In this document: positions 1 through 60,922 of the stretch, piece by piece
Numbering within the stretch: position 1 is the first letter of the stretch
How the letters are laid out: the number at the start of each line of letters is the position of its first letter
Assembly: GCA_021791495.1 (NCBI GenBank)
Contig: JAJYWN010000060.1
Coordinates: 141,591-205,590 of the forward strand
DNA from: Bacillota bacterium
GTDB lineage: Bacteria; Bacillota; Sulfobacillia; JAJYWN01
Reading direction: 5' to 3'
DNA: 64,000 nucleotides
The notes under the pieces: generated by a model
Seen by the model: the letters and a program-made list of their open reading frames with translations, nothing else
Database searches by the model: none
Told to the model about the DNA's origin: nothing
Translations under genes and position numbers: made by a program

Positions 1-311
1 GCACCTTGAGCGGCGGCGAGCAGCAGATGCTGGCTATCGGGCGCGCGCTGATGGCCAAACCGAAGATCCTTCTTCTCGATGAGCCGTCTCTGGGATTGGC
101 CCCCCAAGTGGTCACTCAGGTACTTGATCTCATAAGGCGGATTCGCCAATCGGGTGTCGGAGTACTCTTGGTGGAGCAAAACGTCCACCAGGCATTAGAA
201 GTAGCGGATACGGCTTACGTCTTGGAGAACGGGCGGGTGGTCCTTTCGGGCAGAGCTGGTGAGATCAGGGAGAACCCAGCCGTCCGGTCCGCATATCTGG
301 GACCGGCTTGA
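1..311 (+). CDS. livF: Branched-chain amino acid ABC transporter ATP-binding protein (LivF-type), C-terminal part; 5' end lies outside the window
   Basis: ORF 6..311 is open to the window edge. It shows the ABC signature LSGGEQQM and Walker [14 protein letters not shown]. The C-terminal stretch ([16 protein letters not shown]...[10 protein letters not shown]) is typical of LivF. Confidence 0.8.
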
Positions 312-362
312 TGCCAAGCTGAGTGGGTCCGGCCGGAATGAGGCCGGCCTAACCCGCAGACG

Positions 363-716
363 TCAACGCAAAGCCTCGCAGAAGCATTGGAAACTCCGCG
401 AACGGTTGCGTTCAGGCTCCATGTACGCTGATACTCTCTCAGAGACCTTGATCTTGGGAAGGCCTGTCCGGTAATACGGGTGGAGCACTCTCTCTAACGC
501 CTCGCAAGTGCCCCCCGCTACGGAGTCTGGGTCGCGAAACCCCGCCCTCTCACCCAATGTTAGGGGCACTCTAGGGTACGCGGCGGCAAGCGCAGGAACG
601 TCCCCCAAAAGCCAGGCTTCCAGCTCCTCACAGGCAATGCGATTGACAACGGAAAACTGGGGAAGAGCCCCCAGTCTGGCGGCAACCAGTGACGGTAACC
701 TGCAAGCCGCTTTCAA
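363..716 (-). pseudogene. DUF4276-like C-terminal fragment, the usual partner of the AAA ATPase above
   Basis: The 117-aa ORF in a different frame abuts the ATPase remnant (..[22 protein letters not shown]...NRSRSFQCFCEAL). The region is too short to hold both full-length genes. Confidence 0.3.
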
Positions 717-1137
717 ACTCGAGAAACCGAAATGGCTTCCCTTTAGGCTTGCGCCTCCACTGTAGCCACTCCTCAGAAACGTAAGGGCCGCGCTGGTTCT
801 CCTCTATGGCCAAGTGATAGGTCAGTAGCGGTGTTCCTGGGCACTCCCTGTACTTGACCTCAATCTCTATCGGACCGGAAGCTCCCCGGCTCCGCAGTTC
901 CTTGAACCTTCCTCGCCTATCCCAAGCTTTCCTGAGGCCACTAGTAAAGCATTCCGACAGAAACGCAAACACGTCAAAGACCGTCGATTTGCCACTGCCG
1001 TTAGGTCCGATCAGGGTCGCCAACGGCAGGAGGTCTCTGAGCTCGAAATCCTTGAGGACTCGGTAGTTCCGCACGTGAACGTACTCAATCCGAGGGACAG
1101 AGGCGTTGCTTTCGAGATCATCCTGCCACAAGCTCAT
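628..1137 (-). pseudogene. AAA_15/AAA_21-type (abortive-infection/OLD-like) ATPase, N-terminal remnant only
   Basis: The 169-aa ORF starts [46 protein letters not shown] (Walker A) and then runs into out-of-frame-looking sequence. Full-length family members are about 350-450 aa. Family assignment is by motif memory only. Confidence 0.45.
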
Positions 1138-1356
1138 GGCCGCCCTCCCAATCCTGACCAGTGCCTCTACAACTAGACGCGGTGATTACTTAGACCTTTT
1201 GCGGTCCCAAGTCGGTTTATGCCGTGAAGGCCGACGTGGTAAGGAGGAGCCTGGTCCCAAGGACTGAGGGAATGGTCCGTCGAACATGAAGCGGAACATA
1301 GACTGACAAAGATTCACGGCCATCTTGGCCGATGGATGTGAAAGGATGGTCGGGCC

Positions 1357-3249
1357 ATGGCTGCAGCGGAAGACTCTTTCCTCGACGGCATGAGGACCTT
1401 CATTCAGGAGAAGATGCAAGTCTGGAAGGTACCCGGCGTTGCCGTGGTCATCGTCCGCAACGGTGAGGTGGTCCTCCAGGAGGGATTCGGCTTCCGCGAT
1501 GTGGAACGCGGGCTGCCGGCGACACCGAACACCTTGTTCGCCATCGGTTCGTCCACCAAGGCGTTCACTGCCGCCGTGGTCGCAGCCCTGGTAGACGAGG
1601 GCAAGCTGGAATGGGACCGTCCCGTTCGGGACTACCTGCCCGGTTTCCGCCTACACGACCCCTTCGCCAGTGAGCGCATCACTCTCCGCGACATGCTCTG
1701 CCACCGCTCAGGGTTGCCCCGCCACGACCTCTTCTGGTACTCCTCCACCCTGACCCGCGAGGAAATCATCGCCCGGCTGCGCTACTTGCCGGCCAGCCGC
1801 GACTTCCGTACGGTCTGGCAGTACCAGAACCTGATGTTCATGACCGCCGGGTACATAGCGGGTCACGTGGCGGGTGGGACCTGGGAGGATGCCGTCCACA
1901 ACCGCCTGTTCGGCCCCCTCGGAATGGCATCCAGCAACTTCTCGGTGACCGAGTCGCAGCGCACGGGCGACTTCGCCCTCCCCTACCTGAAGAAGAATGG
2001 TGCAAGCAGTGACCGTGGTGGCGGCGGCGGCAGCGGTGGCAGAAGTGGCAGCGGCGGCGGCAGTGGCGGCAGTGGCGGGGACGGGAACGCCAAGGTTATC
2101 CCCATCCCCTTCCGCAACATTGACACCGTGGGCCCCGCCGGTTCCATTAACTCCTGCGCCCGTGACATGGCCAAATGGCTGCAACTCCACATAAATGAGG
2201 GGAGGCTGGGAGGCCGGGAGATCATCTCGGCCGCCGCCCTCCGTGAGATGCACTCACCGCAGATGGTCATCCAGCAGCCCGTCCAATACGCGGAACTGCC
2301 CCTCTCCACCTACGGCATGGGCTGGTTCATCGGCCCGTATCGCGGCGCCATCGAAGTCCAGCACGGCGGCAATATCGACGGTTTCAGCGCCTTGGTGAGC
2401 TTCCTCCCGGCCCACAAGACCGGAGTCGTGGTGTTGACGAACTTGGGCGGTAACCCCTTGTCGGCCATCATCTCCCGCTACGTCTACGACCAGGTGCTTG
2501 GCCTGGAGCCGGTGGATTGGAGCGGCCGGCTGCTGGAGGCGGCAGCAAAGGTCGAGGAGGGTATCAAGGAAAAGAAGAGGGCGGAGGCCGCGGCGAAGCG
2601 CAAGGCTTCGGGCGCGCGGTCGATGGAGCGATCAACGGCGGGGTCGACTGGGCGCGGCAGAGCGCGGGTGGCCAAGCCAACGCACCCCTTGGCCGACTAT
2701 GTCGGAGATTACGAGCACCCTGGGTACGGTACGGTGACGGTGGCCTGGAGCGATGAAACTGAGAAGGACGCCCTGGAGCTGCGCTATAACGCCCTGACCT
2801 GCCCTCTGACCCACAAGCACTACGACGTCTTCGAGGCCAGGTACGACCTGTTCGACATGGTCTTGGTTGTCAATTTCCAGATCGGCCTGAAGGGTGAGAT
2901 CGCTTCGCTGTCCGTTCCGCTGGAGGCGGCCCTGGAACCGCAGCCTTTCACCAAGGTCCCACCCAAGCCCTCCGCCGCCCTGGAAGAACGCCTGATGGGG
3001 CGGTACATGCTGAACGGGACCATCCCCGTGGATATCGCCCGCCGGGGCGCCGTCCTGAGCCTGGTCATTCCCGGGCAACCCGCCTTCGACCTGACCCTGC
3101 GCGGAGGAACAACCGCCACCTTCGACGTCAAGGGTTTCCCGCTGTCCCTGGCTTTCACCTTCGACGAAGCCGGGCGGCCGACCGGTTTCGCCCTAACGCA
3201 ACCCAACGCCGTGTTCCAGGCAACGCGAGCGAGCACAGCGAGCACGTAG
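1357..3249 (+). CDS. Serine hydrolase with beta-lactamase/PBP fold and a C-terminal DUF3471-like domain; carries Gly-rich and Lys/Ala-rich inserts
   Basis: The 630-aa ORF has an SxxK motif (AIGSSTKAF), a YxN motif (WQYQNLM) and an HGG in place of the third box. The RBS is AGGATGG. Inserts are SDRGGGGGSGGRSGSGGGSGGSGGDGN and KVEEGIKEKKRAEAAAKRKASGARS. Confidence 0.85.
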   Translation: MAAAEDSFLDGMRTFIQEKMQVWKVPGVAVVIVRNGEVVLQEGFGFRDVERGLPATPNTLFAIGSSTKAFTAAVVAALVDEGKLEWDRPVRDYLPGFRLHDPFASERITLRDMLCHRSGLPRHDLFWYSSTLTREEIIARLRYLPASRDFRTVWQYQNLMFMTAGYIAGHVAGGTWEDAVHNRLFGPLGMASSNFSVTESQRTGDFALPYLKKNGASSDRGGGGGSGGRSGSGGGSGGSGGDGNAKVIPIPFRNIDTVGPAGSINSCARDMAKWLQLHINEGRLGGREIISAAALREMHSPQMVIQQPVQYAELPLSTYGMGWFIGPYRGAIEVQHGGNIDGFSALVSFLPAHKTGVVVLTNLGGNPLSAIISRYVYDQVLGLEPVDWSGRLLEAAAKVEEGIKEKKRAEAAAKRKASGARSMERSTAGSTGRGRARVAKPTHPLADYVGDYEHPGYGTVTVAWSDETEKDALELRYNALTCPLTHKHYDVFEARYDLFDMVLVVNFQIGLKGEIASLSVPLEAALEPQPFTKVPPKPSAALEERLMGRYMLNGTIPVDIARRGAVLSLVIPGQPAFDLTLRGGTTATFDVKGFPLSLAFTFDEAGRPTGFALTQPNAVFQATRASTAST

Positions 3250-3271
3250 AGGGATTCCAAAGCCCGGGGCC

Positions 3272-3333
3272 TACCGTTCTCCGGCCCGTTCTCCGGCCCG
3301 TTCTCCAGCCCGTTCTCCAGCCCGTTCTCCGCC
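3272..3333. repeat. Intergenic 12-bp direct tandem repeat (CCGTTCTCCGGC and variants), 5 copies
   Basis: Read directly: ccgttctccggc / ccgttctccggc / ccgttctccagc / ccgttctccagc / ccgttctccgcc. It lies between the hydrolase stop and the next gene. Confidence 0.8.
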
Positions 3334-3397
3334 CTATTGTCTCCCGCCCCAACGTTCGATAGTGTTGGATAGGGGAAAGGGAAAGCGGGGTTGGGGT

Positions 3398-4645
3398 ATG
3401 GTTTGTCCGGATGGTGGCGACCAGGCGGGTCGCCTTGATGTCGCGCGCCGCGGACGCGCCATCAGGAAATCTGTCTCGGTGGTGGCGTCCGTGGTCATCT
3501 TGCTGACGGCGGTCCAGCTCTACCCCCGTGTCAAAGCCACCTACAGGTCGCGCGTCCCCGAGGAGTTCGGGCCCGATCCTCTGACCGATGGCATCACTTA
3601 CACCTTGCCGGCGGACGCCTCAAAGACGGTACTGAGCCTGCCCAACGACTTGGCGGATATCTTCGCCGGCGGACTTACGGGAGCGTCGGGCTTCGGTCTG
3701 CATGCCTTGGACCACGTCGAAGGATTGGACCACATCGTCCTAGACCTTAGACAGGGGGTGCCTGTCGGGAGCTGGGCGGAAGGGGTCGTCACCCAGGTGT
3801 ATTGGACCGGTGAGGATTACCAGATCACTATCGACTACGGCGGCGGTCTGGTGGGCACGTACATGGAGATCACCACTCCTTACGTGAAGAGAGGCCAGCG
3901 CGTCGCGCGCGGCCAGCCCGTGGGCCTTGGCATGGGTGCCGAAAGAGAGGTGTCCAGCGCCGAGTTCGCCCTCTTGGACCGTAATCGCCACAAGGGCGTG
4001 GCGGCAAGTGACGGCCAGGGCGGGGTCTACGTTTCTCCCTACGATTACCTGGAGTACTCGCAGAAGATGAAGCTGGTGGAGGTGTACAGGAGGAACGTCC
4101 TCGACCGGATGGCTGTGACGGCGGGCGGCTCGCCCTTGGAACCAACCCAGTCGGAAAAGGGCAAGTCGCCCGCGCTCTTCCCCTACCAGCCCTACCTCAC
4201 CAACCAAATCATGCTTCACGAAGGCAACCAGGGCCGCTTAACCGGCGAGTGGTACAGTACTCGGAAATGGGGCCCCGGGCTACCGGTGGACATCCTCACG
4301 TTCATCGAAGCGTCGAACCCCTATTTCCGGGGAAACGTCCTTCTTTCGAACGACGACGGCACTCCCACCGGTTCCGGGCTGAGTCTAAAGGGGACGTTCG
4401 AAGTGGACTACGCGAAGAAACAGGTCAAGATCAACGCGCTCGCCACCACCGACTTGCCGCCCACGACCTACTACGGGATCTTCGAAATCGATGAGTCGGG
4501 GAAGACCGCAACGCTGAAACTGGAATACCAGACAGGGAGCTACCCCACAGTTTTCTCCGACAGGGCCGTCACCTACGTGACCAAGCCTCCCATGCGGCGG
4601 CGCCCCGCCGGCAAACTGCTGGGGGTAAGGGATTCAGATAAGTGA
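3398..4645 (+). CDS. Membrane-anchored protein with a degenerate LytM/M23 peptidase domain (HxxxD retained, HxH lost); start uncertain (3362-3398)
   Basis: ORF 3362..4645. There is an N-terminal signal-anchor VVASVVILLTAVQLY. The M23-like block reads LHALDHVEGLDHIV...ITIDYGGGLVGTYMEI..VKRGQRVARGQPVGLG, where the IDHG and HLH histidines are replaced. Confidence 0.5.
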   Translation: MVCPDGGDQAGRLDVARRGRAIRKSVSVVASVVILLTAVQLYPRVKATYRSRVPEEFGPDPLTDGITYTLPADASKTVLSLPNDLADIFAGGLTGASGFGLHALDHVEGLDHIVLDLRQGVPVGSWAEGVVTQVYWTGEDYQITIDYGGGLVGTYMEITTPYVKRGQRVARGQPVGLGMGAEREVSSAEFALLDRNRHKGVAASDGQGGVYVSPYDYLEYSQKMKLVEVYRRNVLDRMAVTAGGSPLEPTQSEKGKSPALFPYQPYLTNQIMLHEGNQGRLTGEWYSTRKWGPGLPVDILTFIEASNPYFRGNVLLSNDDGTPTGSGLSLKGTFEVDYAKKQVKINALATTDLPPTTYYGIFEIDESGKTATLKLEYQTGSYPTVFSDRAVTYVTKPPMRRRPAGKLLGVRDSDK

Positions 4646-4680
4646 GGTGGGCGCCGGCAAGCGCCGGCAAGCGCCCTGGG

Positions 4681-5667
4681 CTATGAAACCAGGGCCTCTT
4701 GCACCGACCTCATGGCCTGCAGCACCCGGCGGTGGTGACTGAACACCGACCGGTTATGCCGGAGCCGCGCTTCCGCTCCGGCCGTGGAGTTCACCAGGTC
4801 GCCGAAGGTTCTGACCATGGACACGACTGGATGGGGGTGCCAATCCCGGACGGACGTCCGCCCGCCTGCCCCGACCACCGTCACGACCTGGCGGCCCGGT
4901 TCCACCCGTAGCGCCCCGCGCCGCCCCACGATGTCGATGTCTATGTCCGGACCTTCCGATGGATAGTCGGCCGGCAAGCAGGCCGAAATCTCGGCCGAGA
5001 CGATGAAATCGTCCGTGAACCGTATCGTCAGGACCAAGGTGTCCATGCTCTCAACCGCAGCGCGTCTCGTCTCGCCGGCGAGCCCGCCGGTGCCGACGCC
5101 GCCCCCGAAAAGACGCCCCCCAGCGGCATGGACTCGGGCCATGGGCGCCGGCGTGCAGCCGAGGGCGAAGTCCAAGACATGCCAAATGGGGTCTTCGAGA
5201 ACGCTGCTTCCTACCTGCCGCTCGCCACCGGCCGCCGCTCCAACCCTTGTCCTGTATCCCACGTAGGCATGGAGCCCCGGACCTATCCCTCCCCCGGCCA
5301 TGGCGTCGAGGGCGTGTCCCACGGCAGCCATGTGCCGCAGGTCGGTCGGGGTGTAGAGGAGACCCGGCTCCGGTGTCCCTTCGCACGTCCGCTCCAGCTG
5401 ATCCAACTCGGCTTCGGTTAGGGCGCAGGGCATTGGGCACAACACCGACCTCCCAGCGCCGAGGGCCGCGGCGGCGGCCGCCGCCCGCCCACTGGGTGCG
5501 CCGCCGACGAAGACGGCATTGACCGTCTGCTCGCGGGCCGGGGCCGCCAGTTGCACCGGTCCCAAGGTGAATGGGCTTTCATTCCCGAGTCGCTCCACCA
5601 AAGCCGCAGCCCGATCGTCCGAACCTATTACTCCCAGCTCAAGCACTTTCGCCGACACCCCCCACAT
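4681..5667 (-). CDS. Gfo/Idh/MocA-like oxidoreductase, divergent
   Basis: The 328-aa ORF has a Rossmann-like N-terminus (LELGVIGSDDRAAALVERL..AVFVGGAPSGRAAAAAAAL.AGRSVLCPMP), consistent with the family. Confidence 0.4.
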   Translation of the reverse strand: MWGVSAKVLELGVIGSDDRAAALVERLGNESPFTLGPVQLAAPAREQTVNAVFVGGAPSGRAAAAAAALGAGRSVLCPMPCALTEAELDQLERTCEGTPEPGLLYTPTDLRHMAAVGHALDAMAGGGIGPGLHAYVGYRTRVGAAAGGERQVGSSVLEDPIWHVLDFALGCTPAPMARVHAAGGRLFGGGVGTGGLAGETRRAAVESMDTLVLTIRFTDDFIVSAEISACLPADYPSEGPDIDIDIVGRRGALRVEPGRQVVTVVGAGGRTSVRDWHPHPVVSMVRTFGDLVNSTAGAEARLRHNRSVFSHHRRVLQAMRSVQEALVS

Positions 5668-6769: not shown

Positions 6770-8332
6770 TCAGACCTTGGCCGTCTTCCAGCGCCCGCTC
6801 TTCCACCGCATGTAGATCACAAGCGATCGCGTGAGCTGGTCGACGAGCATGGCCAGCCAGGCCCCGGCCAGGCCCCAGTGGAGGACGTTCACGAACAGAA
6901 GACACAGAGTGACGCGGAAGCCCCAGACCCCGGCGAAGGCGGCGTAGAGGGGCCAGGTGGTATCCCCTGCCCCGCGTAGGCCTCCGGCCAGAACGAATTG
7001 GTTGACCTGAGCCGGCTGGGCCAGGGCCGCGATCCTTAGGGCGACGGCGCCGAAGGCGATGACCCCGGCGTCCGAGGTGTACATCCGCACGATCCAGGGG
7101 GCTCCGAGGAAGAAGAGCGCCCCCAAACTCACGCCCATGATCAGGCCCAGGCGCCGGGTCTCCCACCCGCAACGCTCGGCCCAGTCCGGCCGCTTGGCCC
7201 CCAGGTTCTGCCCGACCAGGGTGGTGGCGGCGACGGCGAAGCCCTGGCTGGGCATGAAGGACAGGCTCAGGACGTTCATGGCGATTTGGTGGGCCGCCAC
7301 CGTCACTGTACCCAATCCGGCCACCGTCCGCGTAAAGATGACCATCCCCCCGCGCATGACGAACTGCTCCAGGGCAGCCGGCAGACCGATGCGCACCATT
7401 CGGGCGATGATGGCGCCGTTCCAACGCCACCGGTCCCGCAGACCCACCTTGATGACGTACTTCCCGCTCACCACGGCGGACAGTGAAAGGGCGAAGGCGG
7501 CGAACCGGGCCATGGCCGAGGCCACCGCCGCGCCCAGCACACCCAGAGCGGGCAGACCGAAGGCGCCGTAGATCAAGGGGTAACCGAGGATGACGGCGAG
7601 GACGTTAGCGATCAGGCTCACCCGCATGGGAGTCTTCGTGTCGCCCGCCCCGCGCAGGGCCGAGTTCAAGCTCATGCTGAGGGTATTGAAGGACAGAGTC
7701 ATAGCGATGACCTGGAAATAGCTGAGGCCGGCGGAGATCACCTCGTCCTCGGCACCCATGAAAGCCAGGATCTGAGCGGCGAAGATGTACCCCAGGGCGG
7801 CCATGACCGCGGACAAGACGACGTTGATGAGGAGGGTCTGGCGGGTGACCTCGTTGGCTTCTTCCGGATGCCCGGCGCCAACGGCGCGGGCCACCAGGGC
7901 GGTAGCGCCAACGTTCAGCGCCTGGAAGGCGGAGATGGCGAAGAAAACCGGCTGGTTGGTGAGGCCGACGGCGGCCACGGCTACGGGGCCGAGGTGGCCC
8001 ACCAGGACCATGTTCAAAACCTGAATCATGCTGGAGAACGTCATTTCGGCGATGGCCGGCCCGGCCAACTGGATCACTTTCTGCCGGATGGCGGCCGGGG
8101 TGGCTTCGCCGATACCCACGGCAGCGGATAGGCGGGCGCGGCCCAGTAAGGCGCCACCGGGCAGGGCAGCACCGGGCGGGGAAGCACCGGGCGGGGAAGC
8201 ACCGGGTACGGCGGCACCGGGTGGGGTCGCACCAGGAGCCGCCGCCATGGTCGCGGCAGTGGGGGCCGCGGCGGCGGCGGCAATGAGGGCTTCCTCCGCC
8301 TCTTCCGGAGGGCCACTGGGCCGGTCAGTCAT
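6770..8332 (-). CDS. MATE family multidrug/efflux transporter; the N-terminal ~70 aa are Pro/Ala/Gly-rich low complexity and the true start may be internal (GTG ~8119)
   Basis: The 520-aa ORF contains a MATE core, IRQKVIQLAGPAIAEMTFSSMIQVLNMVLVGHLGPVAVAAVG, across twelve predicted transmembrane segments. Confidence 0.8.
   Translation of the reverse strand: MTDRPSGPPEEAEEALIAAAAAAPTAATMAAAPGATPPGAAVPGASPPGASPPGAALPGGALLGRARLSAAVGIGEATPAAIRQKVIQLAGPAIAEMTFSSMIQVLNMVLVGHLGPVAVAAVGLTNQPVFFAISAFQALNVGATALVARAVGAGHPEEANEVTRQTLLINVVLSAVMAALGYIFAAQILAFMGAEDEVISAGLSYFQVIAMTLSFNTLSMSLNSALRGAGDTKTPMRVSLIANVLAVILGYPLIYGAFGLPALGVLGAAVASAMARFAAFALSLSAVVSGKYVIKVGLRDRWRWNGAIIARMVRIGLPAALEQFVMRGGMVIFTRTVAGLGTVTVAAHQIAMNVLSLSFMPSQGFAVAATTLVGQNLGAKRPDWAERCGWETRRLGLIMGVSLGALFFLGAPWIVRMYTSDAGVIAFGAVALRIAALAQPAQVNQFVLAGGLRGAGDTTWPLYAAFAGVWGFRVTLCLLFVNVLHWGLAGAWLAMLVDQLTRSLVIYMRWKSGRWKTAKV
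8169..8240. repeat. 15-bp tandem repeat (GCACCGGGCGGGGAA-like), about 5 copies, at the 5' end of the MATE ORF
   Basis: Read directly: gcaccgggcggggaa gcaccgggcggggaa gcaccgggtacggcg gcaccgggtggggtc gcaccaggagcc. On the minus strand it encodes PGASPPGASPPGAALPG. Confidence 0.6.
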
Positions 8333-10248: not shown

Positions 10249-11022
10249 TTACCACATGCGGTCGTGAGCGTGATAGTAGCGGTGGTGGTGACCGTGACCG
10301 AGGTGGTGGCACTCATGATGATGGTGGTGGTGATGGTCGTGATGTTGGTGGTCGTCGTCGTGCTCGTGCCCGCAGACCGCATCTCCCGACTCCAGTGTTC
10401 CCGAGGCAAGTTTGGGAAGCACCTCATCCAACGATCCGGACACGCCCGAGATGATCTCCAGGCCGTTGGCCCGCAGAGCCTGCTGGGCCGGGCCACCGAT
10501 CCCGCCCACGACTACCACGGACACCTGATGGTCGCGCAAGAAACCGGCCAGAGTCCCGTGCTGGTGTGGTCCGGGGTTTGGGTAGTCCCGACGGCTGACG
10601 ACCGAGCCTCCGGCGATCTCGACGATGGCGAAACCCGGCGCCCGTCCGAAGTGCTGGGATACTTCGTTACCTTCTAAAGCGATAGCTGCGATCACTGGGT
10701 CATTCTCCTCCTTTTTTCTGGCCGGGGGCTCGACGAACTCGTAGTTGCCGCCCCCGATACGAATGGCTTTCCCCGTTACCAGGGCTGTAGCCACTTTGCC
10801 CCGGGCGGAGCTAACGATACGCTGGAAAGTGCTCTGGGCTACATTCATGCGCCGGGCGCAGGCCTCTTGATCGAGGCCGTCCATGTCGCTCAGGCGAAGG
10901 GCCTCCAACTCATCGACGCACAGGCATTCCTCCTCCAACTCCCGAAGAGGGGTACCGGCGGGTTTGTAGTAGGTCACTTCCGGTCGAAACGCCACGGACC
11001 TGGTCTTAGGCGGCCTTGGCAT
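10249..11022 (-). CDS. Fusion of DUF134 (UPF0251, predicted sigma-70 region-4-like DNA-binding) with a NifX/NifB-like dinitrogenase FeMo-cofactor-binding domain and a His-rich C-terminal tail
   Basis: The N-terminus [25 protein letters not shown] matches DUF134 and starts at an ATG. The middle region ([47 protein letters not shown]) is Nitro_FeMo-Co-like. The tail reads [36 protein letters not shown]. Confidence 0.8.
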
Positions 11023-11105
11023 TCCTTCTGCGCACCTCGCGTTCCGGGTTATTATCGATAACTATTCTAGTGGGTTTTTGGGTATTTATCAATAACAGTT
11101 TTCTC

Positions 11106-11924
11106 CTACAGCCTCAAGTCTCTTCGTCTGAAGATCAGCACTGCCGCAGTCAGGAAGACGATGGTCGTGGCGGCCAAGATCGCGGCATGCTCCCAGACCC
11201 CGGACGCCGACTCCACGAGTTTGGCCGGGTCGTAGTGCCCAAAGATAGTCCAGGCCGTGAGCGCGTTCTCCCGGCCCGAAGCCCGGAGCGCCACCGTCAG
11301 GACATACAGGGCTGTGGATACTCCCAAACCCGTGAAAAGGGTTCGGGTGTAGTCTGGCACAAACACGGAGATGAGCAGGAGCAGCGCGGCAACGGCCATG
11401 ACGGCGAGCCAGGCCACCGAAACCGTGCGCAGCGCCACCCAGGCGGGGAACTCCTCGCCGATGCTGGCGATGCCCACCCAGGCCCCGCCGAAGACGACCA
11501 GGTGCAGGATGGCCAGGTTCAGTGCCAACCCGACGAAGCGGGTGAGCACCAGGCGGGCTCGGCTGATGGGTTGGGCGAAGAGGAACTCGGCCGTGCCCCG
11601 CTCGATTTCCTTACTGATGATGCCCGCCACGACGATGGAAACGTAAATGGAGGCCAGCATCGGGAGATAGCTGAGCAGTTCCAGGCGGAGCCACCCCGCC
11701 ACCGTCCGGCTGGACAGTTCCCCACCCACTAGGGCTTTCAGGCCGGCCGGCATGTGGTTCAGATACTCCAGCAGGGGCTGCCAATCGTGCTCCGTGCTCT
11801 TGTAGAAGGCGGAGATGTAATAGGCGTAGGCCGCCAAGCCGACAGCCCAGCCCACCAGGGCGCCGCGCTCGGCCCGCCAGTAGTTCCGGAACACGGTCAG
11901 GGTCTTCATGAAGGTCAGCTTCAT
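11106..11924 (-). CDS. ABC-2 type transporter permease
   Basis: A 272-aa protein with six transmembrane segments. Its start overlaps the ATPase stop by 4 nt. Confidence 0.7.
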   Translation of the reverse strand: MKLTFMKTLTVFRNYWRAERGALVGWAVGLAAYAYYISAFYKSTEHDWQPLLEYLNHMPAGLKALVGGELSSRTVAGWLRLELLSYLPMLASIYVSIVVAGIISKEIERGTAEFLFAQPISRARLVLTRFVGLALNLAILHLVVFGGAWVGIASIGEEFPAWVALRTVSVAWLAVMAVAALLLLISVFVPDYTRTLFTGLGVSTALYVLTVALRASGRENALTAWTIFGHYDPAKLVESASGVWEHAAILAATTIVFLTAAVLIFRRRDLRL

Positions 11925-12913
11925 CTCTGCTCACCTCCGACGCCAGCACCGGAATCGCCGCTGTAGAACTGCATGAACACCTCTTCCAGGGTCGGGTCCT
12001 CCACGCGCAGGTCCTGAAGAGAAGAGGAAGCCAGCCTCTCAAGGAGCGGACGGAGGTCGCCCGTCACCTTCAAGGTGATCCAACCGCTCTGGGCGGCGCC
12101 GCCGGCGTGGTCACGAACCCCGGCTGCCGGCCCCGACCCGTTTTCCACCAAGCGTACGCCGGGGATGGTCAAGAAATTGGGCCGGCCGCCGGAACCGGGC
12201 TCACCTCCTCCGGAGCCCGCAGCCGTGCCAAACCGGGCAGTGACCGTCTTGAAGTGCATTCCGCGCAGGGACGACACCTCGTCGACCTTGACGACCACCC
12301 CTTCGCGGATAATAGCCACACGGTTGCACAAGGATTCGACCTCGGCCAGGTTATGAGACGACAGGAAGACGGTCTTCCCACGCGCCGTCTCCTCGCGCAG
12401 CAGGTCGGCCAGCACATGCTGTACCAGAGGGTCTAGACCGGTGCTGGGCTCGTCCAGGACCAACAGTTCGGGGTCGTGGGCCAGGGTGGCGACGATGGCG
12501 ATCTTCTGCCGCATTCCCCTGGAGCACTGTTTCACTCGGAGGCCAAGGTCAACTCCGAGTCGGCCGGCCAGGGAGCGGGCCCGCGAGCGGTCGCGTAGCC
12601 CCCGGGTGGCGAGGACGAAGTCCACCAGGTCCCAGCCGCGCAGATGGGGGTACAAACTGGCGTCGCTGGGGAGGTACCCGGTCCGGGCTCGGATGGCCAG
12701 CGTATCCCGGTCGACGTTCAGACCGAAGACGTGGGCGGTGCCGCCGGTCCGGAGCAACATCCCCAGGAGGAGGCGGATGGTCGTTGTCTTGCCGGCACCG
12801 TTGGGGCCCAGGAAACCGAAGATCTCGCCCTTTTCCACGGTAAGGGTCACATCCTCAATACCACGCTGGCGCCCATAGCTCTTGCTCAGCTTGACGGTCG
12901 CTATGACTGCCAT
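11921..12913 (-). CDS. ABC transporter ATP-binding protein, partner of the ABC-2 permease
   Basis: Contains Walker A GPNGAGKTTT, the signature CSRGMRQK and Walker B LLVLDEPSTGLD. The preferred start is ATG at 12913, which has a GGAGGAGG RBS 10 nt upstream. The longer GTG-start ORF reaching 13051 is rejected. Confidence 0.85.
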   Translation of the reverse strand: MAVIATVKLSKSYGRQRGIEDVTLTVEKGEIFGFLGPNGAGKTTTIRLLLGMLLRTGGTAHVFGLNVDRDTLAIRARTGYLPSDASLYPHLRGWDLVDFVLATRGLRDRSRARSLAGRLGVDLGLRVKQCSRGMRQKIAIVATLAHDPELLVLDEPSTGLDPLVQHVLADLLREETARGKTVFLSSHNLAEVESLCNRVAIIREGVVVKVDEVSSLRGMHFKTVTARFGTAAGSGGGEPGSGGRPNFLTIPGVRLVENGSGPAAGVRDHAGGAAQSGWITLKVTGDLRPLLERLASSSLQDLRVEDPTLEEVFMQFYSGDSGAGVGGEQR

Positions 12914-12939
12914 GGCTCTGACCTCCTCCTGAAACACAA

Positions 12940-12978
12940 ACAAAAGGACCTCACAGGGAGGTCCCTCACGCCCGTACT
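12940..12978 (-). terminator. Rho-independent terminator/attenuator hairpin inside the 5' leader of the ABC-2/DUF134 operon
   Basis: Minus strand: GGGACCUCCCUGUGAGGUCC (7-bp stem) followed by UUUUGUUUGUGUUUC. It sits about 25 nt upstream of the ATPase RBS. Confidence 0.45.
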
Positions 12979-13367
12979 GCTTGAACCCGGGAGCCTCCGA
13001 TGATTGGGGTTTGGCACAGCACGACCTGGTCCTGAACTGCGGTCCTGCCACATTAGGTACGCCTTGCGGCGGTATCTGCTACACCCGTTGGAGTCTCTCG
13101 ACCTTTCCGGGCAGTGGCTTTAGCCAGTACTGGAGCCTCACTTAACAAGGGAGCGGTATTCTGTTTTGCTTCCAGTGTCTGGACATTATACGAGGGTCCG
13201 CGGGCGAAGTTCCATAGGGTCTCGACTCTATTGCGTTTCCGCACCATCAGGGCGTCTACGCTACTTCCCTTGTGCCTGCCGTCAATCCATCAGCCCCGAC
13301 AAGGAAGCTAATTCCACTCCTGGAAAGGGATTCTCTTTGGTTCTCCCCTAATCTTTATCGGGAGGGC

Positions 13368-14464: not shown

Positions 14465-15805
14465 ATGATCACGGTGGAGTCAGGTAGAAGCGCACGGGGG
14501 TGGCTCCCGCGCATCGCCGCCGGTGCCGTTTGGCTTCTGCCCCTGGCCGCCCTCTATGCAGTGGCTCGGGTTAGCTATCTCCTTTTTCACATCTCCGCGG
14601 AGATCTTTGCGATCCTGGTGGCCATACTCATCCACATCCTGGCCACGCGCACGTACAAGCACTCCAACAGTGACTTCCTCCTGTTTTTGGGACTGTCGTA
14701 CATCTGCATCGCCTTCCTCGACTTTGCCCACACCCTTACCTATAGCGGGATGAACGTCATCGCCGTCGACTCGCCCAACGTCCCCACGCAGCTGTGGATC
14801 GCCGCCCGATCCCTTCAAGCGGCGGTTCTGCTGGCAGCCACGTTCGTCATGCGACACCGCGTCCGACGCGGTCCGGCGTTGGTCGTGCTGAGCCTGGTTA
14901 CCTTGGGCCTCGGCCTCTCCATCCTGGTCTTCCGGAACTTCCCGACCTGTTACGTGGTGGGTAAGGGACTGACGCCCTTCAAGGTGACGGCCGAAGGTGT
15001 CATCATGGTCGCGATGGCGGCGGCCATGCTCCGCCTCAGAGGGCAGAAGGTGGCTCTGGGTGAGTCGCTGTACGGAGCAATGATGGTCTCCACGGGACTG
15101 GCCATCCTATCCGAATTGGCCTTCACCTTTTATGTGGACGTCTACGGCATACTTAACTTCATTGGGCATGTTCTAAGGATCCTGTCGTCTTTCGTGCTCC
15201 TTTCGGAGGTTGTGGTCCGTGGTATTGACCTGCCGTACCAGACCATCTCCGACGAGTTGAAAGTCGCTTCGACCACGGATTACCTCACCGGCCTTCTGAA
15301 CCGACGTGGGTTCATGGAACTGGCGGCGCGGCGCGTGGACCTGGCCCGGCGCCAGATGAAGGCCGCCGGCCTCCTGCTAATCGATCTGGACGATTTCAAG
15401 GGGGTGAACGATACACTGGGCCACGCTCGCGGGGATGCCGTGTTACGCGGGTTTGCCGACGTCCTCCGGAACTGCGTGCGTGAGTCGGACCTTCTGTCAA
15501 GGCTGGGCGGGGACGAGTTCGTGGTACTGGCAATCACCGATGCGGCCGGAGCGGGGTTAGTGGTCGAACGCCTGAGGGCGGCGGTGGGCGAATGGCAGAG
15601 GGCTGACGACGCCGCGGCCCTCACCAACCTCAGCATAGGTACGGCTGTGTGGGAGGCGGCGCCGGCCGGCGCGATGGAGGCCGAGCTGGACGTGGCACCG
15701 GATGCAGAAGCAAAGGCAGTGGTCGAACGCCTGCTGAAGGCCGCCGATGATCACATGTATCTGGAGAAAAGAGCAAAGCCGGATGTCATCGCCGCGGGCC
15801 GGTGA
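14465..15805 (+). CDS. Integral-membrane sensor diguanylate cyclase (GGDEF domain)
   Basis: About 7-8 N-terminal transmembrane segments are followed by RRGFMELAARRVDLARRQMK..IDLDDFKGVNDTLGHARGD..RLGGDEFVVL, an intact GGDEF motif. Confidence 0.85.
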   Translation: MITVESGRSARGWLPRIAAGAVWLLPLAALYAVARVSYLLFHISAEIFAILVAILIHILATRTYKHSNSDFLLFLGLSYICIAFLDFAHTLTYSGMNVIAVDSPNVPTQLWIAARSLQAAVLLAATFVMRHRVRRGPALVVLSLVTLGLGLSILVFRNFPTCYVVGKGLTPFKVTAEGVIMVAMAAAMLRLRGQKVALGESLYGAMMVSTGLAILSELAFTFYVDVYGILNFIGHVLRILSSFVLLSEVVVRGIDLPYQTISDELKVASTTDYLTGLLNRRGFMELAARRVDLARRQMKAAGLLLIDLDDFKGVNDTLGHARGDAVLRGFADVLRNCVRESDLLSRLGGDEFVVLAITDAAGAGLVVERLRAAVGEWQRADDAAALTNLSIGTAVWEAAPAGAMEAELDVAPDAEAKAVVERLLKAADDHMYLEKRAKPDVIAAGR

Positions 15806-16508
15806 TCTCTTTCTCAACCACTCCCTCACTCACTCCCTCACTCATTCTCTCTCCCACTCTCTCTCCCACTCTCTCTCCCACTCTCTCTCCCACGTCCTAT
15901 GGGTTGGCGGGTCACCCTGCGCCGGCAAGACTTCGGTCGCCGGTGAACTGGGCCGACGGCATGGAGTGCACCTGTACAGCGCCGACGACCACCTGGCGGA
16001 TCACGCCCGGCAGGCCGACCCAGGGAGGCAGCCGTCGCTGCACTCCTTCATGAACCCGGACTGGGACCAGTTCTTGGTCCGGCGTTCCGTTCCCGAGCAA
16101 GTGGAAGAACTACTCGGCGCTTACCGCGAGGAGTGGCCCTACATCGTCCGGGATCTCTTGGCCATGCCCACCGATCACTTGATCCTGGCTGAGGGGGTGG
16201 CTCTTTTGCCCGAACTGGTCACTGCCGTCATCCGCCGACCGAGCCAGGCCCTTTGGATGGTCCCCACCAGCGAATTCGTGCACGACACCTACCCCGCGCG
16301 GCGCTCAGCACTGGTCCGAGACGTGGTGGGGCAGTGCAGTGATCCTGCTTTGGCTTTTGAGAACTGGATGGACCGCGACATGGAGTTCGGATGTCGAGTG
16401 GCGGAGGAAGCCACCAGGCGCGGGCTTCGGGTCATCGTAGTGGACGGAGTCCTCACCATCGAGGAGTTGACGCGGACCGTGGAAACCCATTTCGGGTTGG
16501 ACATATGA
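15783..16508 (+). CDS. P-loop NTPase/kinase-like protein with an N-terminal (His-Ser-Leu-Thr/Ser)n repeat
   Basis: The ATG at 15783 overlaps the GGDEF stop (ATGtcatcgccgcgggccggTGA), implying translational coupling. No other in-frame start lies between the repeat and Walker A (VGGSPCAGKTSV). Confidence 0.6.
   Translation: MSSPRAGDLFLNHSLTHSLTHSLSHSLSHSLSHSLSHVLWVGGSPCAGKTSVAGELGRRHGVHLYSADDHLADHARQADPGRQPSLHSFMNPDWDQFLVRRSVPEQVEELLGAYREEWPYIVRDLLAMPTDHLILAEGVALLPELVTAVIRRPSQALWMVPTSEFVHDTYPARRSALVRDVVGQCSDPALAFENWMDRDMEFGCRVAEEATRRGLRVIVVDGVLTIEELTRTVETHFGLDI
15821..15894 (+). repeat. In-frame 12-bp tandem repeats (CACTCCCTCACT x2, then CACTCTCTCTCC x4-5) encoding HSLT/HSLS
   Basis: Read directly in the sequence. 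Confidence 0.8.
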
Positions 16509-26702: not shown

Positions 26703-27374
26703 ATGCGTCAAGCCGTGACCCGGAAAGTCATAGAGGAATTGTCCCTTGCCCGTCTTTGGCCCAGAGACATCATCGAGGAATTCGCCGACTCCTACGTTGA
26801 GGCCGTCACGACCAAGCCCTTGGTCCTACTGGTCGGGTCGGCCGGAACTGGGAAGATGATGTGGACTTCGGTGGTAGCCCAGGCCCTTGGAGATGCCTGG
26901 CGGGCCGTGTCCGCGCGGCCGGCCTGTGACGGAGGCAAGAGTCTCTTCGGCGCCTACGATGCCTTCCTGCACAGGTACCGCCGGACAGAGGCTCTCGATT
27001 TCACCATAGACGCCCTGAACGAGTTTCGAGCCCACGGGCTTGCGGCGCAGCGCTACCACCTTTGCCTCTGCGGACTGCGCACGGCTGTGGCAGCCCCCTG
27101 CCTGGCGCCCGTGTTGCGTGCCCTGGAGACCCCGGAACGTCAGATTCGGCTGCACGATCAGCGCGACGAACTGAAAGTTGGGGTGGCCCGCACGCTGTTC
27201 CTGCCGACGAACCTGGTCATTGTGGCTTGCATTGATGACATGCCCGGTGGCGCGATCACCCACCCCACGGAGGGTAACCTCACGGAGGGTAACCTCGCTA
27301 AACTGGCCTTGAGGTTCCCCGACCTCCACCTCTCGCCAAACCTTTTTGCAGGAGGGGATGGGCGGCTCTGGTAG
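26703..27374 (+). CDS. P-loop (AAA-like) protein of unknown function with a 15-bp in-frame duplication (TEGNL x2)
   Basis: The ATG at 26703 gives MRQAVTRKVIEEL... Walker A is LVLLVGSAGTGKM and Walker-B-like is LVIVACIDD. The part of the ORF overlapping the upstream XRE gene is rejected. Confidence 0.45.
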   Translation: MRQAVTRKVIEELSLARLWPRDIIEEFADSYVEAVTTKPLVLLVGSAGTGKMMWTSVVAQALGDAWRAVSARPACDGGKSLFGAYDAFLHRYRRTEALDFTIDALNEFRAHGLAAQRYHLCLCGLRTAVAAPCLAPVLRALETPERQIRLHDQRDELKVGVARTLFLPTNLVIVACIDDMPGGAITHPTEGNLTEGNLAKLALRFPDLHLSPNLFAGGDGRLW

Positions 27375-41810: not shown

Positions 41811-41930
41811 CTCTTTCATCCAGAGGCGGCGGAGGGACAGGCCCGATGATGCCACGGCAACCACTCCCACATTCGGAGGACGGTGCCAATTCCTGCGGAT
41901 CGGCGACCACGGCGGTCCCAAAGATGAGAG
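41811..41930 (+). ncRNA. SAM-I riboswitch (S-box)
   Basis: CUCUUUCAUCcAGAGGCGGcGGAGGGAcaGGCCCGAUGAuGCCacGGCAACC...GGUGCCAAUUCCUGCgG...AAAGAUGAGAG matches the S-box consensus blocks. P1 is CUCUUUCAUC/GAUGAGAG. Confidence 0.9.
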
Positions 41931-51661: not shown

Positions 51662-53212
51662 TTATGCTCCGACTCGTCCTTTGGCGTGCCGCCCGCCGCT
51701 GCGGCCTGCGCGACCCGGAGCGGCACCCGCCGCCGTTCGGGCGGTCTCCGACGTCTCAGCCACTCTAGCAGGTCCGCGCTTCCGAGGTGCCTTGAAGAAG
51801 CCTCTTACCCCACCGACCAGCGAGGTGAAAGCCCGGGCCACTCGCTGCCCTTCATTCTCCGCCGACCAACTGGCCGGCTCGTTTAGGGCGTAGATCATGC
51901 CCGACAGGCGCGGCCACCACAGGACGAACCGGTAAATGGGCATGGCGAAGGGCAGGAACCACCACGACCATACTCTCACACCGTATTCCTTCATCAGAAA
52001 GCCCGCCACAGACACGAGAAAACCCAAGTCAATGAGGACATACAGGAAGTAAGTGATCCATAAGGCCAAGGCCACCAGCGGCAGCGAGTACCCCAGGAAG
52101 AACATGAACGGGATAAGGAAAGTCCAGGTCAGCCGCGGGAAGGAGAGCGTATGATCGCTCAGCAGCAGCCTGCCGACGAAATCCCCCAGCGCGAACGTCC
52201 CGTCCCGCCGGTAGTGCTTCGGATACAGCGAAAGCACCTCCAGCTCGCCCCGCTGCCACCTCAGGCGCTGCGCCAAGAACCGAGTCAGGCTGGAGGTCGG
52301 CTCCACGTAGGCCCGGGCGTCCGGAACACAGACCAGGCGCCACCGTCCTCCCATCAGGTTCCTTATGTCGAAACTGACCTTGGTGTCCTCTGACACTGTG
52401 GTGTCGTCATAGCGGTGGGTTCCCAGGAGCGCCTCCCGGCGGAAGACGGAAAATGCCCCGGACAGGGTGAACAAGGTGTTCCGCAGGGACTGCACCCGCC
52501 GCCCGATGCGGAAAGCGGACAGGTACTCCATGATCTCACAAGCGTTGACGATCTTCCACCACCACCGGGTCTCGGAAGGCACCAGGTCGACCATGATGGA
52601 CCCGCAGGCGCCACCGATCTTGTCGTCGGCGTCAAAAGCCTCCACCATCCGCTGGACGGCGTCGGGGGCCAGGCGGGTGTCGGCGTCCACAGTGAAGATC
52701 AGCGAACCGCGGGCCAGGTATGCCCCTGCGTTCAGGGCTTTCGACTTGCCCTTGGCGACCAGATCGATCCAGGTGACGTTTAGTTCCGCGCATTCCTGCT
52801 GTGCCCGCCCATACATCCGGGCGCTGTGGTCGCTGACTCCGTTCCCGATGCACAGGACCTCCATGGCCCGTGCCGGATAGGTCTGGGCCGACAAGGCCTT
52901 GAGGCAGCGGAGAAGCGATTCCTCCGCGTTATAGACGGGCACCACGATGCTGATGAACCTTGGGGGTGGAGTGCTGCGACGCCGCAGGCGTTCTTGCTCC
53001 AACTCCGCCTCGGCCGCGCCACTGATCGGGGCGGCGCCACCGGCCAGGGCGGCGCCCGGCTCGGCCTCTTCCTTCTTCGGAGCCGGCGCCCGGCTGGGCC
53101 GGCGCAGCATCAGGAGCAGATACGACAAGGCCGTCAGGCCATCCACGGCCATGGGGACCAGGGCCCAGATGGCCCAGAACAGGAGAAAGCGCACGATCGC
53201 ATCGCTCAGCAC
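51662..53212 (-). CDS. Membrane-integral processive GT2 glycosyltransferase (PgaC/IcaA/NodC/cellulose-synthase-like)
   Basis: SIVVPVYNAEE, a DAD motif (FTVDADT) and the processive motif QRLRWQRG are present, with flanking transmembrane helices. The GTG start has a GGAGGAG RBS. Confidence 0.85.
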   Translation of the reverse strand: MLSDAIVRFLLFWAIWALVPMAVDGLTALSYLLLMLRRPSRAPAPKKEEAEPGAALAGGAAPISGAAEAELEQERLRRRSTPPPRFISIVVPVYNAEESLLRCLKALSAQTYPARAMEVLCIGNGVSDHSARMYGRAQQECAELNVTWIDLVAKGKSKALNAGAYLARGSLIFTVDADTRLAPDAVQRMVEAFDADDKIGGACGSIMVDLVPSETRWWWKIVNACEIMEYLSAFRIGRRVQSLRNTLFTLSGAFSVFRREALLGTHRYDDTTVSEDTKVSFDIRNLMGGRWRLVCVPDARAYVEPTSSLTRFLAQRLRWQRGELEVLSLYPKHYRRDGTFALGDFVGRLLLSDHTLSFPRLTWTFLIPFMFFLGYSLPLVALALWITYFLYVLIDLGFLVSVAGFLMKEYGVRVWSWWFLPFAMPIYRFVLWWPRLSGMIYALNEPASWSAENEGQRVARAFTSLVGGVRGFFKAPRKRGPARVAETSETARTAAGAAPGRAGRSGGRHAKGRVGA

Positions 53213-60001: not shown

Positions 60002-60922
60002 TTGATCGCCGGTGGTACGGGGTTCCTGGGAAAACCTCTGATCAAGGAGTTGCAGGCGGGTGGGCACCGGGTAACGGTGCTCACCCGCTCTCCCGACGGC
60101 GCCCGGCGGGCGCTGGGCCAGGCGGGACTTGTCGGAACGTTGCCTGACCACGATGTGGCCATCGCGGCCTGGACCGACCTTGCCGGGGCCCTGAGAGGGG
60201 TCGACGGTGTCGTCAACCTGGCCGGCGCGTCCATTGGCGAAGGCCGCTGGACGCCCCAGCGAAAGGCCGAGCTGGTGGACAGCCGCCTCAGTTCCACCCG
60301 GGCCATCGTCTCGGCCTTGGGGCGGGTGGAACCACGGCCCAAGGTGCTGGTGAACGCGTCGGCTGTCGGCTACTATGGGGACCGGGCGGAGAAAGTGGAC
60401 GAGGGCTCCGCTCCGGGAGGCGACTTTCTGGCGGGGCTGTGCCAAAAGTGGGAAGAGTTCGCCGAGGGCGCTACTTCCTCGGGTGTGAGGGTGGTCCGCG
60501 TCCGGACCGGAGTGGCGCTGGCAAAGGATGGTGGTGCCCTGAGCCGGATGCTTCTGCCTTTCAAGCTTTTCGCCGGGGGCCCCATGGGCTCGGGCCGGCA
60601 GGGTTTCCCCTGGGTGCACCGGGCGGACGTGGTCGGCCTGATCCGGTTCGCCCTCGAGCACGATGAGGTGTCGGGCCCCTTGAACGCCGTAGCTCCCGAT
60701 ATGGTAGACAACGCGGGCTTCTCGCGCGCCCTGGGGCGGGCCTTGCATCGCCCGTCCTGGCTGCCCCTACCCGGTTTCGCCCTGCGCCTGGCTCTGGGGG
60801 AAATGGCGGGCCCCCTTCTCCTCTCGGGTCAGTTTGTAAGGCCGGCGGCGGCCGAGAAGTTCGGCTATCACTGGCGTTTCCCGAAACTGGTCGGGGCCCT
60901 GGACGACCTGTTCAGGCAGTAG
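60002..60922 (+). CDS. TIGR01777 family epimerase (YfcH-like SDR with a DUF1731 C-terminus)
   Basis: The GTG at 60002 follows an AGGAGGAAG RBS. The sequence is MHVLIAGGTGFLGKPLIKEL...WRFPKL. Confidence 0.85.
   Translation: MIAGGTGFLGKPLIKELQAGGHRVTVLTRSPDGARRALGQAGLVGTLPDHDVAIAAWTDLAGALRGVDGVVNLAGASIGEGRWTPQRKAELVDSRLSSTRAIVSALGRVEPRPKVLVNASAVGYYGDRAEKVDEGSAPGGDFLAGLCQKWEEFAEGATSSGVRVVRVRTGVALAKDGGALSRMLLPFKLFAGGPMGSGRQGFPWVHRADVVGLIRFALEHDEVSGPLNAVAPDMVDNAGFSRALGRALHRPSWLPLPGFALRLALGEMAGPLLLSGQFVRPAAAEKFGYHWRFPKLVGALDDLFRQ

Follow-up and report, generated by a model that had tools for sequence, protein, structure and literature searches.

The genes behind M-box Mg2+ riboswitches almost always encode CorA, MgtE or MgtA, and the notable exception, the Nramp-related NrmT, is a new Mg2+ transporter (PMC4072509). 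NifX-like domains occur in several metal-handling proteins: the Di-Nase fold of the ORP complex and of MrpORP from Desulfovibrio vulgaris binds Mo-Cu-S or Fe-S clusters (PMC6345978), and in IssA of Pyrococcus furiosus a NifX-family domain is combined with a functional disordered C-terminal tail that binds inorganic iron-sulfur species, or thioferrate (PMC5524996). The DUF134 regulator family is large, counting thousands of proteins from anaerobic bacteria and archaea, and our literature search for DUF134/UPF0251 function found no experimental characterisation of any member. Here we describe a stretch of 64,000 nt (the window) from contig JAJYWN010000060.1 of a Bacillota bacterium of the Sulfobacillia, in which an M-box precedes a two-gene ABC-2 transport cassette, which in turn is followed on the same strand by a gene for a protein combining a DUF134 domain, a NifX-like domain and a His-rich tail.

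With moderate confidence, we read this arrangement as two separately controlled units lying side by side, a Mg2+-gated ABC-2 cassette and an autoregulated DUF134-NifX-His regulator (Table 1). A first-pass annotation of the window had joined the same three minus-strand genes, for an ABC ATPase, an ABC-2 permease and a 257-aa protein, into a single operon ending in a possible regulator of the exporter. The three genes exist, as judged from their open reading frames (ORFs) and Pfam matches. Their grouping into one operon holds in part: they share a strand and the terminator scan finds no terminator between permease and regulator gene, but the spacer between these two genes contains a promoter match and two palindromes.

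The leader of the ATPase gene matches the Rfam M-box model over its full length (model positions 1-169 of 169) with 77.6 bits against a gathering threshold of 44 and an E value of 4e-15, and the conserved core segments are intact. It had been annotated as a leader with a terminator; the terminator is there, and the leader itself is the riboswitch, reaching past the end originally assigned to it. The terminator hairpin is GC-rich and present in both minimum free energy (MFE) folds, with the ribosome-binding site (RBS) and ATG coming next. As MFE folding z-scores for the leader are uninformative (around 0 in this GC-rich sequence), the evidence for the riboswitch is the covariance-model match. 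The M-boxes of Bacillus subtilis mgtE and of NrmT have the same full-length aptamer and intrinsic terminator, while the genes downstream in the window are ABC-2 genes instead. Read from its sequence, the element corresponds to a classic transcriptional Mg2+ OFF switch with predicted Mg2+-dependent compaction and termination. At high cytoplasmic Mg2+, the aptamer would compact, the terminator would form and transcription would halt before the ATPase gene; at low Mg2+, read-through into the ABC-2 genes would follow. A candidate promoter for this transcript is a TATAAT hexamer, which the M-box follows after about 30 nt, although its -35 element is poor and the consensus promoter scan missed it.

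The true start of the ATPase gene is the ATG at 12913, which is preceded by AGGAGGAGG and agrees with gene calls on public contigs. The mechanical ORF (11921-13051) is too long: it adds 46 codons (12914-13051) upstream of the true start, and these overlap the terminator as well as the M-box at its 3' side. Automatic gene calling by longest ORF would hence conceal the riboswitch. The window harbors a second riboswitch, a SAM-I (S-box) element at 41813-41930 on the plus strand (76 bits).

The two genes downstream of the M-box qualify as an ABC-2 exporter, with PF00005 and PF12679 both matched above their cutoffs and the permease start overlapping the ATPase stop (ATGA). With the TIGR01188 drrA subfamily model the ATPase scores 190 bits, which is under the model cutoff. 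No substrate-binding-protein gene is present in the flanks of the pair, and ABC-2 systems without a binding protein generally export. The first unit would represent a two-gene DrrAB-like efflux cassette with an M-box in its mRNA leader. As the M-box targets in the literature are almost always CorA, MgtE, MgtA or NrmT, a pair of ABC ATPase and ABC-2 permease is an atypical target, and a rare non-canonical use of an otherwise reliable Mg2+-transporter marker.

Comparison with five orthologous cassettes (L007, L093, L094/L095 and L096) offers more detail about this link. Their ATPases are 59-61% and their permeases 43-55% identical to those of the window, and relatives of the permease are few. 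None of the five carries an M-box or a DUF134 gene beside it, and Rfam and nhmmer searches, the latter with the window M-box, likewise found no M-box in any of the loci of cassette or regulator relatives. The identical regulator protein with the same gene arrangement occurs on seven metagenomic or metagenome-assembled genome (MAG) contigs. The M-box/ABC-2 link is not conserved and is known from one lineage only. In L094 (3947-6694) the cassette directly follows a pair of ECF sigma factor and zf-HC2 anti-sigma factor genes, and in L096 (4544-6730) a stand-alone response regulator gene; these neighbours hint at a role of the pump in envelope stress or detoxification. The cassette gives the impression of a portable module for stress efflux that has different regulatory inputs in each lineage, those in the window being Mg2+ and, probably, a MerR-type sensor. 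The Nramp-like exception among M-box targets led to a new Mg2+ transporter family, and the single-lineage case described here may instead illustrate the ease with which a cassette for stress efflux can acquire a riboswitch.

The MerR-type sensor in question is encoded divergently to the cassette. Its architecture, a MerR helix-turn-helix (HTH) domain with a GyrI-like domain, and its position resemble those of BmrR-type regulators divergent to efflux pumps. Solely from its divergent position, the gene is a candidate activator of the ABC-2 operon promoter and would probably contribute ligand-dependent promoter control. In contrast to BmrR-type systems, the pump genes are separated from their promoter by a riboswitch, and inspection by eye of the region upstream of the M-box revealed no convincing MerR-type promoter with a 19-bp spacer and dyad.

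The same evidence bears on the alternative that all three genes form one Mg2+-starvation module, in which the pump and the His-rich protein handle the influx of Ni2+, Co2+, Zn2+ or Fe2+ accompanying Mg2+ scavenging, or in which the ABC-2 transporter is itself a new Mg2+-related one. Such a module would fit with the M-box directly upstream, with possible read-through into the third gene and with the tail of the window protein, which is the most His-rich in its family (20 His, whereas the fusions of both domains have 6 at the median and 16 at most among their last 40 residues). A precedent exists as well, in that a new Mg2+ transporter came to light through M-boxes in front of an 'unexpected' transporter family (PMC4072509). 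However, we consider the single module unlikely, as the arrangement is confined to contigs of this organism, the relatives of cassette and regulator all lack an M-box, the His tract resembles a slippage-expanded codon repeat, and a pump that exports cannot serve to import Mg2+ when low Mg2+ turns it on. A related proposal, which we regard as quite unlikely, is that the M-box marks an unrecognised low-Mg2+ arm, in which a co-transcribed pump and His-rich sensor export or buffer competing divalent metals, or remodel the envelope, and reset metal and Fe-S expression, or in which the pump represents a new Mg2+-linked class like NrmT.

Under the favoured reading of two units, the second one would consist of a one-gene regulator in which a sigma-70-region-4-like HTH is joined to a NifX-like domain of the TM1816 type, for metal or cluster binding, and to a Cys/His tail. 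The N-terminal DUF134 domain and the NifX-like domain, as proposed in the first-pass annotation, were both recovered by Pfam well above their cutoffs. The AlphaFold2 model of the protein has a predicted local distance difference test score (pLDDT) above 92 for residues 1-100 (94 for the DUF134 domain), around 85 for the NifX-like domain and below 50 for the tail. In the modelled DUF134 domain, the HTH core with its three helices (residues 36-47, 52-58 and 63-83) superposes with 0.9 A over 48 residues on region 4 of sigma-E (sigma-70 region 4) bound to -35 DNA (2h27), and also on the DNA-binding domain of DeoR (Foldseek). The domain is thus modelled as a helix-turn-helix fold and would be expected to bind DNA. 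Foldseek returned no solved structure covering the whole DUF134 domain, and the match of the regulator to the NCBIfam model PRK04217 (56.9 bits) is under the equivalog cutoff of 115.

For the NifX-like domain, Foldseek returned TM1816 (with a TM-score of 0.81 on the target), PH0822, MJ0327, NafY, ORP and NifX as superposable structures, and TM1816 is also the PDB sequence match of the regulator (2.3e-18). TM1816 of Thermotoga maritima (PDB 1O13, 1T3V) is 35% identical to the window protein, shares its 'S-x-HFGRAP' motif and has a native His-rich C-terminus of its own (...HDHHHHEHH). TM1816, PH0822 and MJ0327 are single-domain NifX-like proteins outside nif clusters with unassigned function and, unlike the window protein, without a DNA-binding domain. 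No NifX- or NafY-specific NCBIfam model matches, the sole match being a domain-level one to MrpORP (66.6 against an equivalog cutoff of 450). Since no specific model matches, the nearest relatives are non-nif proteins and the neighbours (ABC-2, GGT and MATE genes) are not nif genes, the domain is assigned to the non-nif branch of the family rather than to NifX or NafY sensu stricto. The earlier label of a FeMo-cofactor-binding fold is therefore too specific.

The gene for this protein appears to possess its own promoter. The spacer that separates it from the permease gene is markedly poorer in GC than its surroundings and contains a sigma-70-like promoter, with one palindrome lying over the -35 element and a second one just past the -10 element. 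The TTATYGATAA pattern has only two intergenic sites in the 64 kb, both of them in this spacer, a count that none of 100 shuffles reached. Similarly, a pair of near-identical near-palindromes arose in only 45 of 200,000 composition-matched shuffles. Relatives carry palindromes at a position matching those of the window spacer. The two sites point to autoregulation of the regulator gene, whose product most likely binds both of them, on either side of the promoter, and thereby represses its own synthesis. A metal or an iron-sulfur-type cluster bound by the NifX-like domain and the tail would then switch DNA binding. In the absence of a terminator between the two units, transcripts from the Mg2+-gated promoter can run on and add to regulator expression, the adjacency itself being lineage-specific.

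Only four other places in the window have an 83-nt stretch with a pair of near-identical near-palindromic 10-mers (27221-27350, 53031-53150, 56321-56410 and 60011-60130), and 27262-27296 and 53012-53056 are tandem repeats as well. The only near-match to the spacer palindromes elsewhere in the window, at 49270, lies inside a coding region and was dismissed as chance.

Table 1. Positions of the features of the ABC-2 cassette, the regulator gene and their control regions in the window
Feature	Position	Strand	Evidence or remark
DUF134-NifX-like-His-tail protein, 257 aa	10249-11022	minus	Pfam
Cys/His-rich disordered tail	10252-10383	minus	sequence and AlphaFold2 model
Nitro_FeMo-Co domain, residues 118-205	10408-10671	minus	PF02579 (IPR003731), 80.3 bits, cutoff 26.3
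DUF134 HTH domain, residues 3-95	10738-11016	minus	PF02001, 70.5 bits, cutoff 27; profile positions 6-96 of 98
Spacer between permease and regulator genes, 83 nt, 41% GC in a 62% GC region	11023-11105	minus	candidate autoregulated promoter
Palindrome TTATCGATAA just past the -10 element	11052-11061	minus	-40 from start codon
Sigma-70-like promoter TTGATA-17-TAGAAT	-35 at 11087-11092, -10 at 11064-11069	minus	promoter scan, 10/12 matches
Palindrome TTATTGATAA over the -35 element	11086-11095	minus	-72 from start codon
ABC-2 permease, 272 aa	11106-11924	minus	PF12679 ABC2_membrane_2, 59 bits, 5.7e-16
ABC-2-type (DrrA-like) ATP-binding subunit, 330 aa	11921-12913	minus	PF00005, 83 bits, 3.8e-23
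Intrinsic terminator of the riboswitch expression platform, 10-bp stem GAGGGACCUC/GAGGUCCUUU, then U-rich tract	12933-12967 (hairpin 12943-12967)	minus	terminator scan
Full-length M-box (ykoK) Mg2+ riboswitch aptamer	12988-13156	minus	Rfam RF00380
TATAAT -10-like hexamer, candidate promoter of the riboswitch-ABC transcript	13185-13190	minus	read off the sequence
Divergent MerR/GyrI-like (BmrR-type) regulator gene, 266 aa	13433-14233	plus	Pfam MerR_1 1.7e-15, GyrI-like 2.9e-18

To place the spacer palindromes in a wider context, one genome per GTDB species was scanned with a DUF134-domain alignment. From the 502 relatives obtained, analysis was confined to the best 80 loci; the set is biased to close DUF134 relatives and includes 18 fusions with a NifX-like domain. 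The box GCATATGC is found within 152 nt upstream of 18 of the 80 DUF134 genes, against 0.005 expected per region. It mostly takes the form of a 12-bp family palindrome, GnGCATATGCnC, about 26-58 nt before the start codon (loci L013-L092; also L005 and L010), with GGGTATATACCC, GTGCATATGCAC, TGACATATGTCA and CGATATATATCG as variants. It marks DUF134 promoters in Dehalococcoidia, Desulfobulbales, Treponematales and Bacillota. Where the DUF134 gene is the last of an ORP-like operon, the palindrome is located at the start of that operon, as in L052 (4291), L064 (3510) and L090 (3256). The box type further pairs with the recognition helix, with 'VSR(P/Q)T' helices accompanying GCATATGC and '(A/S/G)QST' helices, including that of the window protein, accompanying boxes of the GGGTATATACCC or TATCGATA type. 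An autoregulating DNA-binding protein, presumably the DUF134 protein itself, would be expected to leave such a pattern, and we believe that this family-wide candidate DUF134 operator is undescribed, as far as the literature could be searched. The sole copy of GCATATGC in the window, at 24793, is inside a gene and was rejected as a chance occurrence.

The neighbourhoods of the DUF134 genes are consistent in composition. A NifX-like domain, fused or adjacent, is present within 5 kb of DUF134 in 51 of the 80 loci, Mrp/ParA in 32, CbiA-Fer4 in 27 and DUF5320 in 21, and at least one of these four in 61. Precomputed Pfam annotation makes ORP-type clusters explicit in L004, L010, L011 and L012; the order in L004 is DUF134-NifX, two CbiA/Fer4 genes and NifX. 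In L010 and L011, DtxR and FeoAB are found beside ParA, two NifX, DUF5320, two CbiA/Fer4 and DUF134 genes. FeoB occurs within 5 kb in 7 of the 80 loci and DtxR in 5 (L010, L011, L038, L047, L050, L052, L059, L065 and L084), which links a part of the DUF134 family to iron supply. The window protein shares the Di-Nase fold with ORP and MrpORP, but the clusters of Mrp, CbiA-Fer4 and NifX-like genes in which DUF134 genes typically reside have no counterpart here, the window being without Mrp, CbiA-Fer4 and DUF5320. A further difference concerns control, as the published orp operons are under a sigma-54 activator (PMC3897727), not a DUF134 protein. Two riboswitches of other classes, c-di-GMP-II-GAG in L020 (636-723, minus strand) and TPP in L066 (7164-7272, minus strand), lie near DUF134 genes and are probably unrelated.

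These neighbourhoods also speak to the idea, central to the first-pass annotation, that the DUF134-NifX-His protein is a dedicated local regulator of the ABC-2 exporter, which senses the exported metal or cofactor and controls the operon that it ends. The shared strand, the gap of only 83 nt and the lack of a terminator between permease and regulator agree with it, as does L034 (Symbiobacterium thermophilum MAG, 210-4763), where the gene for a DUF134 and Zn-ribbon protein is divergently adjacent to a DrrA-type ABC-2 operon of one ATPase and two permeases. The DUF134 domain of L034 is 69% identical to that of the window. However, its ATPase is only 37% identical to the window ATPase and thus non-orthologous. 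The approximately 800 nt of intergenic DNA in L034 match no Rfam family. L034 and L091 are the only 2 of the 80 loci with an ABC ATPase within 2 kb of DUF134, neither of them orthologous, and in L091 it belongs to a MacB-type system with an opposite-strand gene in between. None of the 18 fusion genes has an ABC ATPase within 3.5 kb, and in the 113 ORFs that surround these genes ParA/CbiA is the sole recurrent Pfam family (3 cases), with no ABC family recurrent. The adjacency is hence unconserved, and co-occurrence of DUF134 homologs with ABC-2 exporters, on which the proposal depended, comes close to never being seen. Moreover, orthologous cassettes are without a DUF134 gene throughout, the ABC promoter and leader contain no TTATYGATAA-like site, and an M-box and an adjacent MerR/GyrI-like gene are already there as controls of the operon. 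Local control of the exporter is thus distinctly improbable. The underlying logic of DNA binding, cluster-binding fold and His-rich tail retains support from the folds, from C217 and the tail, and from the palindromes, and a metal- or cluster-sensing regulator is plausible; it is the control of this particular exporter that finds no support.

The combination of domains in the window protein is a common and known, but uncharacterised architecture. A HMMER search of 1.84 billion representative sequences gave 5435 matches at E <=1e-3, and 79 of about 200 retrieved relatives contain both domains; the source annotation describes them as UPF0251 DNA-binding / Fe-Mo cluster-binding NifX family proteins. 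These fusions share the domain order and the residues E38, E40, D46, H124-F125-G126 and C217 (numbering of the window protein), and most have a Cys/His-rich tail, 52 of the 79 having 4 or more His among the last 40 residues. The nearly invariant C217 opens the tail, and a His/Cys-rich stretch after it recurs throughout the family. In the window protein, the tail had been described as 35 residues with about 20 His; the number of His is borne out, but the 20 His, along with 2 Cys, are spread over the last 44 residues. Compared with the other fusions, the window protein displays the longest His tract and adjoins an ABC-2 cassette instead of Mrp/ORP genes. The DNA encoding the His tract (10316-10362) is a weak tandem repeat of CAY codons with a period of 12 or 21, and slippage during replication may have lengthened the His run.

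The window protein is 37-45% identical to the other fusions, while its DUF134 half is 59-69% identical to unfused DUF134 and Zn-ribbon proteins of about 150 aa from Symbiobacterium and other Bacillota, and for its NifX-His half the identity to a stand-alone protein of 151 aa is 55%. Since each half is closer to unfused proteins than to other fusions, the comparison suggests that the window fusion arose independently and is lineage-specific.

Poly-His/Cys stretches that bind Ni, Fe, Co or Zn beside a functional domain are known from Escherichia coli YqjI/NfeR and from CooJ, HypB and Hpn. The His/Cys element of these proteins is alike, but their folds are unrelated to the window protein, so the likeness is one of resemblance only. 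IssA has a NifX-family domain with a tail, which is cationic and Gly/aromatic-rich, not His-rich, and it has no DNA-binding domain. Such proteins raise the question of whether the window protein serves mainly in metal or iron-sulfur storage or as a chaperone, like IssA, CooJ or Hpn, with a DUF134 part that is no sequence-specific transcription factor. Stand-alone NifX-like proteins with native His tails do exist (TM1816 and P0082), IssA stores thioferrate via its NifX-like domain and tail (PMC5524996), and an Fe-S cluster is the ligand of the Di-Nase domain in MrpORP (PMC6345978). We nevertheless regard such a role as very unlikely, given that the HTH core of DUF134 can be superposed on sigma-70 region 4 in complex with DNA and on DeoR, and that the conserved palindromes before DUF134 genes co-vary with the recognition helix.

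According to the two-unit reading, the regulator would have further targets elsewhere in the genome, the candidates being Fe-S genes of the ORP-like or Mrp type and genes for iron uptake. Several observations weigh against this reading. With regard to such targets, tblastn found no ORP-type partner gene (Mrp/NBP35, CbiA-Fer4 or DUF5320) within the 64-kb window, the sole match being the NifX-like domain of the fusion itself. The window palindrome TTATCGATAA is unlike the main family box, and the TATCGATA core occurs in just four other loci. A different protein could bind the spacer sites, and both DNA binding and ligand sensing are properties that we infer for the DUF134 protein. The missing terminator between permease and regulator gene leaves room for a tricistronic operon, and in L034 the homologous DUF134 gene, too, stands next to an ABC-2 operon, divergent to it and a different one.

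For the DUF134 family at large, the comparison provides a testable operator, a consistent partner set, with Feo/DtxR in a minority of loci, and a recurrent Cys/His-rich sensor tail. Operator, partner set and sensor tail together make the regulation of ORP-like Fe-S machinery in anaerobes directly testable, and the built-in His tag of the window protein is convenient for purification.

Two further repeats were noted in the flanks of the described genes. A 15- or 30-nt tandem repeat (8146-8233) at the 5' end of the MATE gene (ORF 6770-8332, minus strand) encodes a Pro/Gly/Ala-rich N-terminal extension, (PGA.PPGAS)n, on the MatE-family transporter. On the other side, a tandem repeat of 12 nt (15818-15893, 6.3 copies, 90% match) in ORF 15747-16508 on the plus strand encodes (H-S-L-S/T)n near the N-terminus of a 253-aa protein.

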